NCBI RefSeq assembly: GCF_006345805.1
Contig: NC_042998.1
Coordinates: 50,902,001 to 50,966,000 of the forward strand
Direction of reading: 5' to 3'
DNA length: 64,000 nt
Source of the DNA: Octopus sinensis
Taxonomy: Eukaryota
Numbering within the stretch: position 1 is the first letter of the stretch; each line of letters opens with the position of its first letter. Both the position numbers and the translations under genes were made by a program. The notes under the pieces were generated by a model. That model did not search any database. It was not told the DNA's origin and worked only from the letters and a program-made list of their open reading frames with translations. This document shows positions 663-38,028 of the stretch, one piece after another.

Positions 663-796
663 CTATACATACATATATATATGTATGTATATAAATCAAT
701 ATTTCACTTAGGCATAGCAAGACTAATAACCTGGTGTAGAACTCTATATATATATGGTCTAGAATACAATGTTATATGAGTACAGAGTAGTAATAG

Positions 797-1140
797 AAAA
801 CAAAGACATGACACCAAAACAAACAAATGTTTATAATGAACTTCATTCGCTTGCAGCTGTTTCTACCATAAGATGTGGTGGACTCTTAGTTGAGTACCAG
901 GATAACATCCTATATCTGCATCAGAGCCTTGAATATGAAGTACACTTTATTTGGGAATGTTACATTTTTAAAACATACAGACATTATACCCAAATAAAGT
1001 GTACTTCATGTTCAAGGCTCTGATGCAGATATAGGATGTCATACTGGTACTCAACTAAGAGTCCACCATATCTTATGGCAGAAACAGCTATAAAAAAATG
1101 TAGTACATTACAAACATTTGGTTTTTCAAGTCTTTGTTTC
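797..1140. mobile_element. Palindromic insertion next to (TA)n with a decayed hammerhead motif (Penelope pLTR-like)
   Basis: Inverted arms 855-955 / 989-1089, plus outer arms ~797-840 / 1103-1140. Arms contain GCT-CTGATGC...GAAACAGCT; the two-arm consensus is GAAACAGCTGTA, i.e. palindromic helix III and a GUA site. Confidence 0.6.
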
Positions 1141-12400: not shown

Positions 12401-13355
12401 ACTATTTTGCTTCCCTCATTAATATGCACGTCTAACTGTGAATATATCCAATAGTTTATGCTGAAACTGAGGAAGATAAATTAAATGATATGCCTTTATG
12501 TTTTCCATAAGACTTGACTTATAAGTCAAGTTTTATGGAAAACATAAATATTGAGGGTGTAAGTTTCTGGGTACCAAGAGGCCAAGAATATAAGATGTCC
12601 AGAGCTTCATGAGGATAGAGTTTGAATCCTTTGTCTTTTGTGGTGGGATAATTTTTTTTTTTTTTCATTTTTCAGTGTAGAAACATAGACCTCATTAAAA
12701 CCACCACACCATTTAAATCTCATTATTTCTTAACTGGCAGGATATTATTGCCAATATGATTTTTACTAGGCAAGTTAAAGTACATCCTAGTCACTCTTCC
12801 CAACTAAATGAGTTCATATTCCTATATGCCCAAATGTCAGCTCAGCGAGAGGTTGTTAAAAAAAATGAGAGTATGGTAACTAAAAATATTTAAATTTTGA
12901 AGGACAGGCTACAATTCCATTATGAGTGTTTCAACACTCTTTTCATCATCCTCCATGTTTTATAATATTTCATAGAGTGTAAATATAGGAAGTTCCAAGG
13001 AGAATTTCCCTCATGGAGGAATCAAAAACTAAAGAGGGTATATTTTTACATTTGTTGTTTTTTTGTTTCTTTCAAATCATCATCATCGTCGTCATCATTT
13101 AAACAGACAGTAATTGATGATGATGGTGATGATGACAATGATGATGATGATGTTTGTGATGATTTGAAAGAAACAAAAAAAAACTTTCTTTAAAATTTCA
13201 ATTCCAACTTCAGCTGCAAGTTTTTAAGCTTCTACTTCTTGTTCTGTGCTTTTTTCCAGGTTCCTACACCTGCATTTTCCTGCTAGTCCACTCTTTTTAC
13301 ATGTAATATTTTTTTTTTACTGCCAAAATAAAAGTAACTGTTCATGAGACAAAGC

Positions 13356-21911: not shown

Positions 21912-22223
21912 CATATATATATATATATGTGTATATTTCAACAATTGAGGGTAAAATTAATTAATTATTAATCAATTTCACCAAGTATTCAGTATGCAAA
22001 GGGACCATTTAAGGCGAATTCAAATTATTACATTATATAAAAGGGCTTAGTAAAATAAATTACTTTGCCGCATACTGAACTCATTAGAAATAGTAGCTAA
22101 AAAAAAACTTTTTTAAAACTATTTCTAATACTTAAAGAAAACCTCTCTCATATAGTGTTTGCTCAATTCAACTCACGAAAGTATGGGGGTAAAGACATTA
22201 AAAAATCAAATGCAAAGGTTATT

Positions 22224-22275
22224 TGAGAACGTACGTTTCAAGATTAGTCAACTCGACATTTCTATCATCAGCTCA
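22224..22275 (-). ncRNA. Type I hammerhead ribozyme motif (inverted copy, sense to the TTLL intron)
   Basis: Exact reverse complement of 22914-22965. Confidence 0.78.
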
Positions 22276-22913
22276 GAACTCCTTGGTTTGGATTTGAAAA
22301 CACTGAAAGTGGGAGCATACCCTTTCGGCTTCTTATCGCTTCTGAAGATCTGCTCGAAACTAACAGTGCCAGCAAACTCAAATATGCAAGCGAAGAATTT
22401 CTGCTCTCCCCTTTCCACCAGCGTGGGCTAAAATCAGTAAACACTATGCTTTTTCGGTAAAATCCGAGGCATTAAATAGAGAGAGATGAATTATAATTTC
22501 AACAATTGAGGGTAAAATTAATTAATTATTAATCAATTTCACCAAGTATTCAGTATGCAAAGGGACCATTTAAGGCAAATTCAAATTATTACATTATATA
22601 AAAGGGCTTAGTAAAATAAATTACTTTGCCGCATACTGAACTCATTAGAAATAGTAGCTAAAAAAACTTTTTTAAAACTATTTCTAATACTTAAAGAAAA
22701 CCTCTCTCATATAGTGTTTGCTCGGATTTTACCGAAAAAGCATAGTGTTTACTGATTTTAGCCCACGCTGGTGGAAAGGGGAGAGCAGAAATTCTTCGCT
22801 TGCATATTTGAGTTTGCTGGCACTGTTAGTTTCGAGCAGATCTTCAGAAGCGATAAGAAGCCGAAAGGGTATGCTCCCACTTTCAGTGTTTTCAAATCCA
22901 AACCAAGGAGTTC

Positions 22914-22965
22914 TGAGCTGATGATAGAAATGTCGAGTTGACTAATCTTGAAACGTACGTTCTCA
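22914..22965 (+). ncRNA. Type I hammerhead ribozyme motif
   Basis: TGAG-CTGATGA-T-AGA(aatGTCgagttGACtaa)TCT-T-GAAA-CGTACG-TT-CTCA. Helix I TGAG/CTCA, intact core, palindromic helix III ACGTACGT, GUU site (cut predicted after 22961). Confidence 0.78.
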
Positions 22966-23279
22966 AATAACCTTTGCATTTGATTTTTTAATGTCTTTAC
23001 CCCCATACTTTCGTGAGTTGAATTGAGCAAACACTATATGAGAGAGGTTTTCTTTAAGTATTAGAAATAGTTTTAAAAAAGTTTTTTTAGCTACTATTTC
23101 TAATGAGTTCAGTATGCGGCAAAGTAATTTATTTTACTAAGCCCTTTTATATAATATATATGTGTATATATATATATATATATATACAAGCGAATATAAA
23201 CAAGAGGGGTAGTAATATTATTTACTACCAGGTGCCCAGCACAAAAGACGAATTAGTCATAGGAGCCCTTAATTATATA

Positions 23280-24003: not shown

Positions 24004-24881
24004 GCTTGAGTGAAAGAGAGGGGAGGGAGAGAAAGGGAAGGGGAAGGGGCGAGGAGGAGATCGGGAGAGGGGAGGAGAGGGAGAGGAGAGGGGGAAGGGG
24101 AGAGGTAAAGGAGAGAAGGGTCAGAGAGGGAGGAGAGGGAGAGGGAGTGGGGGTGCAACTGAGATACAAAAGGCTTCTGTTGATTTTTCTTGATTTTCCA
24201 GAATCTTTCAGCGTTGTATATTCTTTTGGCTTATTGTTCCCTGCTTTCATTTTGCTCTTTGTCATAGACTTCTGATATAGGCACAGTCGTGGCTGTGTGG
24301 TTAAGAAACTCACTTTGCAACCACATAATTTTGGGTTCAGTCTCACGGTGTGGTATCTTGAGCAAGTGTCTTCTACTATAGCCCCAGGCAGACCAATATC
24401 TTGTGAGTGAATTTGGTGTGGAAGCTCATCATGTGTGTGTGTTAGTCCTACAACCACTGCTTGACAACCAGTGCTGGTTTGTTTACATCTCTGTAATTTA
24501 GTAGTTTGGCAAATAAGATCAATAGAATTTTTATTCTTTCATTCTTTTATTTGTTTCAGTCATTTTGATTGCAGCCATACCGGAGCACCACCTTTAGTCA
24601 AACAAATCTACCCCAGGACTTATTCTTTGTAAGCCTAGTACTTATTCTATCATTCTCTTTTGTCAAACTGCTAAGTTACGGGAACATAAACACACCAACA
24701 TCGGTTGTCAAGTGATGGTGGGGGGACAAACACAGACACATACATACACATATATATATATAGAGTTGAGTATAGAAATTCGGGGTGAGTACTTGATAAT
24801 TATAAGCACCTGTGTATACCGTTTGGTGGTGTAGGTGGTGGAGTAAATTGATCAAAATAAAAACATGATGCGAAGGATTCA

Positions 24882-24959
24882 GCGGTACATATGTTTCGGG
24901 CCTTTATTAGACAGATTTATAACAATGCATAATGTATGTCTGTGGCCTTCTTCAGCCGC
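24882..24959 (-). ncRNA. Type I hammerhead ribozyme motif (inverted copy, sense to the TTLL intron)
   Basis: Exact reverse complement of 25211-25288. Confidence 0.8.
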
Positions 24960-25210
24960 GCACAACAGCCTCCACAAGGACATGTGTTACATCAAAAATT
25001 CTTGGTTGGGGATGCAAATCCTCTCATTTGCGTACGACATAATGCGGCAGCAGCATAGAATTGAAGCGTCCATCTCTTTCTTGAGAGAAGAAAGAGATGG
25101 ACGCTTCAATTCTATGCTGCTGCCGCATTATGTCGTACGCGAATGAGAGGATTTGCATCCCCAACCAAGAATTTTTGATGTAACACATGTCCTTGTGGAG
25201 GCTGTTGTGC

Positions 25211-25288
25211 GCGGCTGAAGAAGGCCACAGACATACATTATGCATTGTTATAAATCTGTCTAATAAAGGCCCGAAACATATGTACCGC
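25211..25288 (+). ncRNA. Type I hammerhead ribozyme motif with extended helix II
   Basis: GCGG-CTGAAGA-A-GGCC(ACAGA...TCTGT...)GGCC-C-GAAA-CATATG-TA-CCGC. Helix I GCGG/CCGC, palindromic helix III ACATATGT, GUA site (cut predicted after 25284). Confidence 0.8.
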
Positions 25289-28015
25289 TGAATCCTTCGC
25301 ATCATGTTTTTATTTTGATCAATTTACATATATATATATACATATATATATATAACAGGCCTCTTTCAGTTTCTGTCTATCAAATCCACTCACAAGGCTT
25401 TGGTGAGCCTGAGGCTATGGTAGAAGACACTTGCATAATGTGCCACGCAGTAGGACTGAACCCGGAACCATATGGTTGGTAAGCAAGCTACTTACCACAC
25501 AGCCACTCCTGTGCCTAAATACTATTCTTTAATAAGTAAGTATTGGGATTGATTTGTTGAGCAAAAACCCTTCAAGGCAGTGCCCCAGCATGGCCACAGT
25601 CCAATGACTAAAATAAGTGAAAGGATATCTTTTCTGTTGATTTGGCTCAGCAAAATTTATAAGGATACCTGAAAGTGTTGCCCAAGGTGTCACACAGTGG
25701 GACTGAACTCAGAACCATATGGCTGAGAAGCAAGCTTTTTACCACACAGCCACACTTGATCAATCAATACCATCAAGTATGGTTGTGAATTGACCCCAAA
25801 TAAAGGGTTGTCATGTTCATCTGCTTTGTACTCAAATCACTGACAGTAAAAGAAAAACCTTAAAAAATCTTTTAAAAGGCTTCATGTGAAAAGTAAACTA
25901 AAGAAAAATAATAATGATGTGAGAAAGACAAGTTAATCTCCTATTGTGGAATTAACTTCTCCTTTCTTTATACCTCATGTTTTTGAAGAGACATTATGGC
26001 TGGCTGCAGTCAAGCCCTGTGCAGATTGCAATGTAGTTTAAATATTAAGTTGAAATCAATGAAGAGAATACCACCAAACCTTAATTCAAAATAAGGTTTG
26101 GTATCAGGGAGAGCAGCCAAGTGTAAAATATTAATAGTACTTCAACAACTGTTATCCAACACATGAAAAAAGTGGACCTAAAAAAGATGGTGGTGGTGGT
26201 GGTGGTGGTGGTGATGGTGGTATCGGTATTGGTACTGGTGGTAGTGGTAGTAATAACAATGGTAACAACAACAACGATGGTGGTGTTGGAGGTGATGGTA
26301 TTGGTGGTGGTGGGGGTATTGTTAGTGGTGGTTGTATTGGTGGTGGTGATGGTGGTAGTGGTGGGAATGACAATGATGATGGTGGTGGTGGTGGTGATGG
26401 TCGTGGCTGCAGTTGGGTGGAAGGGTTGTGGGGATTGTGGTGGTGGTTGCAGTGGTGGCAGTAATGGTGTAAAAGGATTTCCTGCATTTAAATTTTTGTT
26501 TTTGGGTGATGCCCCCAAACAATGCAGCACTTTCAAAAGCAATCAGCGGCTCCAAAGTGCTGATAACATTGACATCACAGAGCTCAGATTGTTAAACGGT
26601 GATTCTTATCAGACAATATACCTATAGAAATTGATTCTATTGTGATTCTTCCTATTTCTCCCATGCCTCTTGCATTATCTCCTCCATCTTGTGTGACCTT
26701 AAATCTTTCAGTTAGCGGAAGCCAACAAAGTTTCCTACAGAATATTGAAGAATATTATTTGCACATCATTTAAAGATTTCGGTGGGGTGGGGGGTATTTT
26801 TTGTCTTTTCTTTTGTTTCCTGATATCATGCCAACTCTGTACATACACTTCCTGAAGTAAAAGTAAATAAATTTCTTATCATTTCTCGTCTCACTAAAAA
26901 TGAGCTGGGCAGATGGCATACAGATTGTTAGCGCTATTTCATAAACAATTTAAGAATTCTTCCATCTGCTCTGGTCATTTAGTCCTTTCCTATTCTACTC
27001 TATTTTTCTTAATGAGTTTTAATTATTTATTATCATATACTTTATCAATATTTTCCAGCTGTTAACATTTCCATTTCTTGGATTTTTGGAATCACCAGTA
27101 GACATTCAGCAAAGAGATTTAGTCTGTTACAATTTAAACATTTGAAATTTTCCTAAAATATATTAGCGCAACATGTTGATATGGTGAATTATTATCTTTC
27201 TTAAATTGCATCTAACAATCATCGGCATCGTCATCGTTGTCGGCGTCGTCATCATCATCATCATAGTTGTCATCATCGGAGTCACCATGTTTGTCATTGA
27301 CATCATCGATGTTAATAATTATCGTCGTCGTCGTCGTCATCATCATCATTATCATCATCATCGTTGTCATCATCATCATTGTCACCATCATCGTTGTCAT
27401 CATCATCATTGTCACCATCAGAGTCACCATGTTTGTCATTGACATCATCGATGTTAATAATTATCATCACCAGCATCAGCATCATCATCAGTATCATCAT
27501 CATCAGCATCCCCATCATCATCGTTTTTAATGTCCACTTTTCTATGCTTGCACATGGGTCGGATAAAGTTTACCGAGGCAGGTGTTCTGCAGCCAGATGA
27601 CCAACCTTCCTGATGCTTAAACTCCCACCCGTTTCTAAATAAAGTAGTGTTTCTCCATGGCCAGACATGTTTTCATAGAATATTAGAAATGAACATCACT
27701 GCTTACATGACAGTGACAGTAATTTTACAACTATTACAAGATATCAAGACAAGGAAACACATACACACACATTTGCTTACATGGCCACATACACACATAG
27801 ATACAAGACTTTTCTGAGGTTTAAAATGTGACAGTGTTCTCGCTATCTACATTCCAACGATGGAGCTTTGTATCTTTGTTAGAAAATAGCTCCTGTTTCT
27901 AATTACCGACACAAGGCCAGCAATTTTGAAATGAATGGATTAGTCAATATCACAGAACCTAATCCTTGAGCAGTGCTTTATCCCTTCAGGGTCAATAAAA
28001 TTAAGCACTGTTCAA

Positions 28016-34928: not shown

Positions 34929-35997
34929 ATGACAGATCTATTGGACTTTCAAAGAGGTCAAACTATTGGTGCTTGTATAGCAAGCACTAGTGTAACAAAA
35001 ACAACCGAAATGTTTGGTGCATCAAGTACTGTCTCAAAAGTAATGGCAGCCTTTGAGAAAGAGGGAAAAACCTCCTTGTCAAAACAAAACTCTGGAAGAA
35101 AACTTTCAGATAGGGACCGTCAGACTCTTATGCAAATTGTTAGAAAAGTTCACAAAGTACAGCTCCCAAAATGACTGCAGAGCTTAATGACTACCTCGAG
35201 AACCCAGTTTCCACAAAACTGTTCACCAGGAACTGCACAAAGCTGGATTTCACAGGAGGGCTGCAATCAGAAAAGCACTTCTTTCAAAACCAAATGTTGC
35301 AAAGCATTTAGAGTGGAGTAAAAACCTACAGAATTGGTCCCTAGAGTAGTGGAAGAATGTTATTTTCTCAGACAAGTCATCCTTTACCTTATTTCCGACC
35401 ACCAGCCGAGTATACATATGAAGACAGCCAAAAGAAGTATTTGACCCAGACTGCCTTTTCCCAACTGTTACACATGGAGGAGGATCTGTGATGATCTGGG
35501 GGGCACTATATCTTGGAAATCTGCCAGTCCAATGGTTTCTCTTTATGGCAGAATTAATAGTCAAGACTATTTAAGCATTTTATCTGATCAAATTCATCCT
35601 ATGGTTGTGGAACTGTTTCTGGAGGGAAATGCAATCTTTCAGGATGATAATGCACCAATTCACACAGCTAAAGTTGTTACTGAATGGCACGAGGAACATT
35701 CTTGTGAAGTTGAACATCTTATCTGGCCAACACAGTCCCCAGATCTCAATATTATTGAACATTTATGGTGCATTTTAGAAAAACAAGTAAGGAGTCGATA
35801 TCCTCCACCATCATCACTACAAGAACTGGAGGCTGTTTTAGCTGAAGAATAGACAAAAATTCCTTTGGAAACAATTCAAACTATCTATGATCATACCTCG
35901 TAGAATTCAAGCTGTAAGTTCTGCCAAAGGCAGTCTTACCCCATGTTAAGATAAATTTTAAATTTTAAGACGTTTCCATTATTTTGTCCAACTCCTG
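34929..35997 (+). pseudogene. Decayed Tc1-like transposon (catalytic spacing DD36E)
   Basis: Fragments MTDLLDFQRGQTIG...GRKLSDRDRQ, FSDKSSF, HGGGSVMIWG and FQDDNAPIH...WPTQSPDLNIIEHLW, with frameshifts and stops. Right TIR-like end TTTCCATTATTTTGTCCAACTCCTG-TA. Confidence 0.85.
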
Positions 35998-37654: not shown

Positions 37655-37903
37655 TATAATCAAAATAAGCAACAAGGATATCCAGAAGCAATGCAGTACG
37701 ATTGTTTCATGCGACTCCATTTAATTAAACAATGCAAACATTACATCAATCTTAAATGTAGAGCAATCTTCAGCTGCACAAAAAAATAGAATTTAATTAA
37801 ATTTTAGATTGATGTAATGTTCGCATTGTTCAATTAAATGGAGTCGCATGAAACGATCGTACTGCATCACCTCTGGATATCCTTGTTGCTTATTTTGATT
37901 ATA
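37655..37903. mobile_element. Palindromic insertion in (TA)n inside a SINE
   Basis: Inverted arms ~37655-37752 / ~37806-37903, with TA tracts at the left end and ~85 bp beyond the right arm. Confidence 0.8.
37692..37778 (-). ncRNA. Type I hammerhead ribozyme motif with extended helix II
   Basis: Minus strand: TGCAG-CTGAAGA-T-TGC(long insert)GCA-T-GAAA-CAATCG-TA-CTGCA. Helix I is 5 bp. The opposite arm preserves the palindromic helix III ACGATCGT. GUA site. Confidence 0.75.
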
Positions 37904-37985
37904 ATCACCTTATTTTAAATTGTATAGATAATACCATACTAAATTCTGGTGCCTCAACTTAAGTAGCATATTCATCTGAATCTAA

Positions 37986-38028
<43 letters not shown>

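Follow-up and report, generated by a model that had tools for sequence, protein, structure and literature searches.

In the accessible text of Craig et al. (2021, PMC8557442), the account given of Penelope-like elements (PLEs) includes an inverted, 5'-truncated copy at their 5' end, a tail of 30-40 bp at one end and an insertion bias for TA. The origin of their tandem and inverted structures is named there as an open mechanistic question. Inverted pLTRs with a tail, a target duplication and microhomology junctions are reported in the accessible sections of Arkhipova et al. (2013, PMC3846280). Metazoan PLEs carry pairs of hammerheads on opposite strands, 100-700 bp apart, and hammerheads with a small palindromic helix III show no cleavage as monomers, need dimers and cleave weakly (accessible part of Cervera and De la Pena, 2014, PMC4209133). 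For Poseidon of Anolis carolinensis, cleavage and extension of both strands were found in vitro, together with two RT start sites that delimit the tail; in that system the Anolis hammerhead motif is protein-assisted and dispensable for insertion (accessible part of Frangieh et al., 2024, PMC11167929). For Octopus vulgaris, the available portion of PMC13282606 lists 30 Penelope families of recent activity and gives 329 insertions for them.

The 64-kb stretch of DNA analysed here (the window) holds at 24843-25327 a palindrome of 485 bases, whose two 240-nt arms differ by a single mismatch (T at 25029 versus the mirror position 25141) and are separated by the 5-nt loop GAGAG (Table 1). Sequence comparison confirms these dimensions, which an earlier note on this DNA had given together with an extension of about 80 bp on the left arm only. 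The extension (24762-24842) holds as well: it is single-copy in the window, and it is element sequence because individual contigs of two sequencing runs span both extension and arm (X8 record 25, 24771-25027; X4 record 17, 24771-24902). The depth of family contigs begins in the bin 24760-24774. The termini of the insert are asymmetric, only one of them having a tail, and the locus was found to hold neither a tandem nor a direct copy. We interpret the palindrome, with a probability of roughly 0.8, as a single young, dead-on-arrival insertion of a high-copy PLE in which two 5'-truncated, hammerhead-bearing ends stand head to head in the TA tract of a SINE.

Table 1. Features of the palindrome, its target site and the neighbouring inserts of similar build (positions in the window).
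Feature	Position	Strand	Remarks
Left half of older SINE-like repeat	24543-24747	+	ends in its own CA/TA spacer; identity with 6 further window copies 71-87%
Candidate target-site duplication, left copy	24748-24762	+	15 bp; identical to 25326-25340
Tail	24763-24842	-	80-bp element sequence, left arm only; AC-rich run first in element sense
Left arm	24843-25082	-	5'-truncated copy of element end, antisense on +; one private change of CpG type (25029)
Type I hammerhead motif, left arm	24882-24959	-	mirror of right-arm motif
Inversion junction	25081-25087	+	2-nt microhomology (25081-82) and 5-nt loop; loop is parent sequence in right-arm orientation
Right arm	25088-25327	+	5'-truncated, tail-less copy, sense on +; end mirrors 24843
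Type I hammerhead motif, right arm	25211-25288	+	predicted cut after 25284
Candidate target-site duplication, right copy	25326-25340	+	15 bp; first two bases overlap arm end
Rest of TA spacer and right half of SINE-like repeat	25341-25517	+	same orientation as left half; 82-91% identical to 6 paired copies
PLE-type insert, young	21935-23158		partial tandem (offset 561), duplicated 94-bp extension, inverted tail-less copy at 99%
Hammerheads of this insert	22914-22965; 22275-22224	+; -
Older palindromic insert	about 693-1139		arms 139/154 identical; 27-bp spacer
Older palindromic insert	37655-37989		arms 98/106 identical; hammerhead 37777-37693 (-); ~86 extra bases on one side

The palindrome interrupts an older repeat, which we take to be a SINE. 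Matching its flanks across the 64-kb window gave 12 left-flank and 14 right-flank matches that form six pairs, and in these six other copies the SINE-like halves are contiguous via a CA/TA spacer of 27-96 bp. The flanks of the palindrome are collinear halves of one such repeat, which bears out the proposal of an insertion within the TA tract of an older SINE. The 15-bp sequence found on both sides is a candidate target-site duplication; it lies inside a microsatellite and is weak evidence on its own. TA targets occur at the palindrome and beside other copies of the family, and the 15-bp duplication of a neighbouring insert (21921-21935 and 23154-23168) is not pure TA. No host exon was recognised by eye among the 68 open frames of at least 90 aa in 1-52000.

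The same flanks bear on the possibility that the palindrome is a fold-back library chimera or an assembly artefact. Near-perfect hairpins are a known sequencing artefact, no contig crosses the loop among the 30 of 2,972 pieces listed, and this particular insertion at 24843-25327 is unconfirmed in independent data. However, the SINE-like repeat resumes in forward direction after the right arm, and neither the left flank nor the tail is mirrored there; the end of the arm coincides with a terminus of the family, and the loop is parent sequence. The mismatch is moreover a CpG transition, and diverged palindromes of similar build lie nearby. All these traits argue against an artefact, which we judge extremely unlikely.

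Words sampled from the element are widespread in sequencing data: 20 of 24 runs, covering 11 studies and 3 organism labels, contain 58-75% of them. None of the 24 runs is recorded as RNA, X4 being guessed to be so. Contigs of four runs were aligned to 24700-25120, which comprises the left arm and 33 bases beyond the loop. Matching contigs number 2,409 in X1 (812 at 99% identity or more), 528 in X3 (213 at 99% or more), 6 in X8 and 16 in X4, their summed depth not being taken as copy number. The element family is large, young and present in high copy number. Several loose contig ends adjoin TA runs close to the outer end of the left arm (24844, 24847 and 24851; 3 among the 14 of 50 listed). Other copies thus stop where the right arm stops, indicating that the tail-less end is a natural and recurrent terminus of the family. 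Two contig joints of X1 inside the tail (24837-24786 and 24834-24791) go back or turn, and possibly represent other copies rearranged in the tail.

We consider it very probable that the element is a Penelope-like stub. The assignment, a putative one, is based on structural features of PLEs; no RT or GIY-YIG ORF was reached. Pfam gave no match for any of four short frames, in a window that contains just 246 nt upstream of the inner end. An open frame of 47 aa that runs across the tail, used as query against proteins, gave one candidate and none at E<=0.001.

The internal breakpoints of other copies also bear on the idea that the element is non-autonomous and palindromic, a MITE- or retrozyme-like unit multiplied as an entire hairpin. 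The element is short, non-coding, hammerhead-bearing and abundant, and retrozymes are reported to derive from PLE pLTRs in the accessible text of bioRxiv 10.64898/2026.07.22.740005. Against this, contigs reaching 25081-82 continue into parent sequence, other copies break at 25043, 25067 and 25085, and the locus is not a head-to-tail tandem, so that whole-hairpin copying appears very improbable. A MITE or TIR transposon would have symmetric termini and one fixed internal junction shared by its copies; the termini here are asymmetric, with a tail, and copies continue into parent sequence or break at other points.

The junction itself can be read from the parent element. In X4, one contig passes 25082 and goes on with letters starting CTCTCAATG, unlike the loop of the window, and four X1 contigs that come in at 25081 have upstream letters in agreement with the X4 contig; the upstream letters of the parent are thus given by five contigs of two runs. 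In right-arm orientation the parent matches the window from 25081 onward in both X1 and X4. The loop is therefore parent sequence that belongs to the tail-less arm, with a microhomology of 2 nt at 25081-82. Two further joints in X1 (24804-25081 and 24903-25081, one contig each, with sides of 24 and 27) are weak signs of other copies that have the same inversion at other breakpoints, a shorter tailed piece being fused there to a sense copy.

This assignment of the loop bears on a proposal of the earlier note, in which one arm was the true 3' end and the other a snap-back copy. The first part stands, the tailed arm carrying the outer 3' end, while the loop on the tail-less arm contradicts the second, provided that the upstream letters read for the parent are right. 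In a snap-back route the tailed arm would be the only cDNA and its 3' end would turn back to produce the tail-less arm. The tight 5-nt loop closed by a 2-nt microhomology, a private base common to both arms and the restriction of the tail to one arm agree with such a course. A fold-back of the tailed strand would, however, place the loop on that strand and give the complementary loop on the + strand, contrary to what is found. It does not predict a stop at the recurrent inner terminus of the family, nor does it suit the neighbouring insert at 21935-23158, where the partial tandem lies on the side of the tail and the tail-less arm exceeds the adjacent copy by 304 nt. We hold a snap-back of the tailed cDNA to be highly unlikely.

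If only the tail-less strand had folded back, there would be no source for the tail. Two cDNAs offer the simplest reading, and we lean slightly towards this route for the formation of the palindrome. The endonuclease of the element would nick the TA tract on either strand, at sites some 15 nt from each other, and reverse transcription would be primed from each nick. The tailed arm would be synthesised from an outer RT start site and the tail-less arm from an inner one, 80 nt upstream. The cDNA ends would then join via the microhomology at 25081-82, either directly or after fold-back of the tail-less cDNA, its copy annealing to the tailed cDNA. Independent truncation alone does not account for both arms stopping within 7 nt. 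With one RNA template, or with such copying of a fold-back, both arms would come to share the private base; the single mismatch would stem from later CpG deamination.

That private base lies at 24970, where the window differs from the family: the other letter has a depth of 518,996/519,645 in X1 and all the depth in X3, X8 and X4. Its mirror base, 25200, carries the same private change. At 25029 the left arm alone differs, by a C-to-T change at a CpG, the family letter having a depth of 527,218/527,473 in X1. As the first change is common to both arms and the second is found on one, one private base predates or accompanied the formation of the arms and the other came later. One difference per 240 positions would correspond to 0.6 My (95% Poisson interval 0.015-3.2 My) at the octopus rate of 0.0036 per site per My quoted in the accessible part of PMC13282606; the repeat landscape suggests an octopus as host, and the CpG site would make the estimate too old. 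Compared to the family majority, the left arm differs at 2 of the 15 variable sites listed, which makes the copy young independently of its symmetry.

This comparison with the family weighs against the view that the insertion is an older one of PLE type, whose arms were later homogenised by arm-to-arm conversion or hairpin repair and whose near-identity gives no date. Perfect palindromes can undergo conversion, and the private base at 24970/25200 is found in both arms as conversion would have it. Yet two other palindromes of the window retain diverged arms (identities in Table 1), so conversion is not efficient here, and we find late homogenisation quite improbable. Of the two possibilities stated in the earlier note, recent insertion or conversion between arms, the former is supported, the young age of the copy being upheld by family comparison.

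Three more inserts of similar build lie between TA runs in the 64-kb window, unrelated in sequence to the palindrome and to each other, and the build is not rare here, with four similar inserts in the window. The young insert at 21935-23158 has a 15-bp target duplication and a 3-nt overlap at its inversion junction. The insert at 37655-37989 is placed, by eye, in a TA tract of the same SINE-like family as the palindrome; its tail-less arm reaches further 5', its 37-bp spacer contains the 5' half of the motif, and its extra bases would represent a putative tail. In the insert at 693-1139, where the loop side is not judgeable, a decayed hammerhead-like motif is seen by eye near 1020-1095. The tail-less arm, which in both 21935-23158 and 37655-37989 extends further 5' than the adjacent copy, carries the turn in 3/3 decidable inserts of the window, too few for a rule.

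We would only tentatively propose that PLE integration follows a rule by which both RT start sites are used, one per nicked strand, on a single RNA, and the tail-less cDNA carries the turn. Loop-side asymmetry was not found described in the accessible text of the PLE literature searched, and Evgen'ev and Arkhipova (2005) and Arkhipova (2006) may describe it. If the rule is true, a genome rich in young PLE palindromes lets the origin of inverted structures be tested via junction counts.

Other repeats of the window are of different kinds. A Tc1/mariner-like transposon recognised by eye at 1203-2822 lies between TA runs with its long inverted ends and contains a 351-aa frame without interruption (1505-2560, stop to stop), and a second, broken Tc1-like transposase fragment is seen by eye at 35250-35852. 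The segment 52117-61843 is a satellite of 25.6 copies of a 381-bp unit, with 98% match and strong strand skew. An isolated near-perfect hairpin of 54 bp at 12495-12548 has no hammerhead motif that could be found.

The hammerhead motif of each arm consists of a helix I of 4 bp, CUGAAGA followed by one more A, a helix II domain of 51 nt, GAAA, a helix III of 2 bp around the palindromic CAUAUG, and GUA. The descriptor finds 5 motifs in the window versus none in each of 100 dinucleotide-shuffled windows. Rfam detects no hammerhead at gathering score in the window, and the 13 matches that 24700-25400 gives with a limit of E=10 include none either, so the call rests on the descriptor and not on a curated model. 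Those 13 sub-threshold matches, mostly to miRNA models on the hairpin centre, were rejected as a product of the palindrome. A scan of metagenomes for the hammerhead pattern returned 120 loci with GC contents of 41-73%, none of which resembles the arm by BLAST or has the motif in complete form (0/120), and they were taken as chance.

With its core bases intact, the motif is predicted to cleave as a weak hammerhead of the dimer type. The earlier note announced an intact hammerhead on each strand with a helix II of about 50 nt; core and helix II agree with this, and the qualification concerns helix III, of just 2 bp and of dimer type. Since this helix is so short and palindromic, a cleavage assay of the monomer could be negative even for a genuine motif. 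In folding predictions helix I has a probability of 0.0005 for the right arm alone and of 0.0 for the full palindrome, which is predicted to form a 240-bp rod; for the monomer, the predicted minimum is a fold other than the active hammerhead. Whichever way the palindrome is read through, the sense motif lies in the second arm, so that its complement would already have been made. The hammerheads are thus predicted to be passengers, masked in any read-through RNA. If transcribed, the palindrome would form a dsRNA of 240 bp, a predicted substrate for editing or RNAi.

The palindrome is real and young, and most likely an ordinary by-product of a very abundant Penelope-like element. As a single locus it has little weight, being one of four similar inserts in 64 kb with an already published architecture. 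Its value is that of a clean specimen, in which the junction can be read, both arms share a private base and the mismatch can be dated.

The likeness is closest to the insertion unit of EN+ PLEs, as laid out in the accessible text of PMC3846280 and PMC8557442: head-to-head truncated copies with 3' ends outward, a one-sided tail, a hammerhead near the 3' end, a TA target, a microhomology junction and a candidate target duplication. The palindrome differs by having no ORF or direct pLTR pair, by a tail of 80 bp instead of 30-40 bp, and by nearly equal arms around a loop of 5 nt. This copy lacks the partial tandem that forms direct pLTRs, as a stub would; not every PLE copy must have one, and the unrelated neighbour at 21935-23158 does. 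Its hammerheads share with those described in the accessible part of PMC4209133 the type I class, a 4-bp helix I, one additional nucleotide following position 9, a palindromic character of 15.2-16.2 and loop 3, and an occurrence as pairs on opposite strands a few hundred bases apart. They depart from them by the 51-nt helix II domain (4 bp, an 8-nt bulge and 5 more bp) and by a 10.1-11.1 pair that requires a bulged C or an A-C mismatch.

More distant systems resemble the palindrome in part. Poseidon has in common with it an AT-rich target, two RT start sites between which a tail lies, downstream of the hammerhead, an AC-rich stretch close to a start site, and cutting and extension of both strands. 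The likeness proposed is one of mechanism, not one of sequence or clade, and the accessible text of PMC11167929 does not treat inverted junctions. The 5' inversion of LINE-1 by twin priming (accessible part of PMC11702581) likewise involves two primings, an inversion junction with microhomology and a target duplication of 12-18 bp, but the inverted L1 pieces span adjacent parts of the RNA whereas the arms of the palindrome span the same 240 nt. Non-LTR retrozymes, in the available portions of PMC7229834 and bioRxiv 10.64898/2026.07.22.740005, are also short non-coding units with a type I hammerhead; they form head-to-tail tandems, while the palindrome is inverted and runs upstream into a longer parent.
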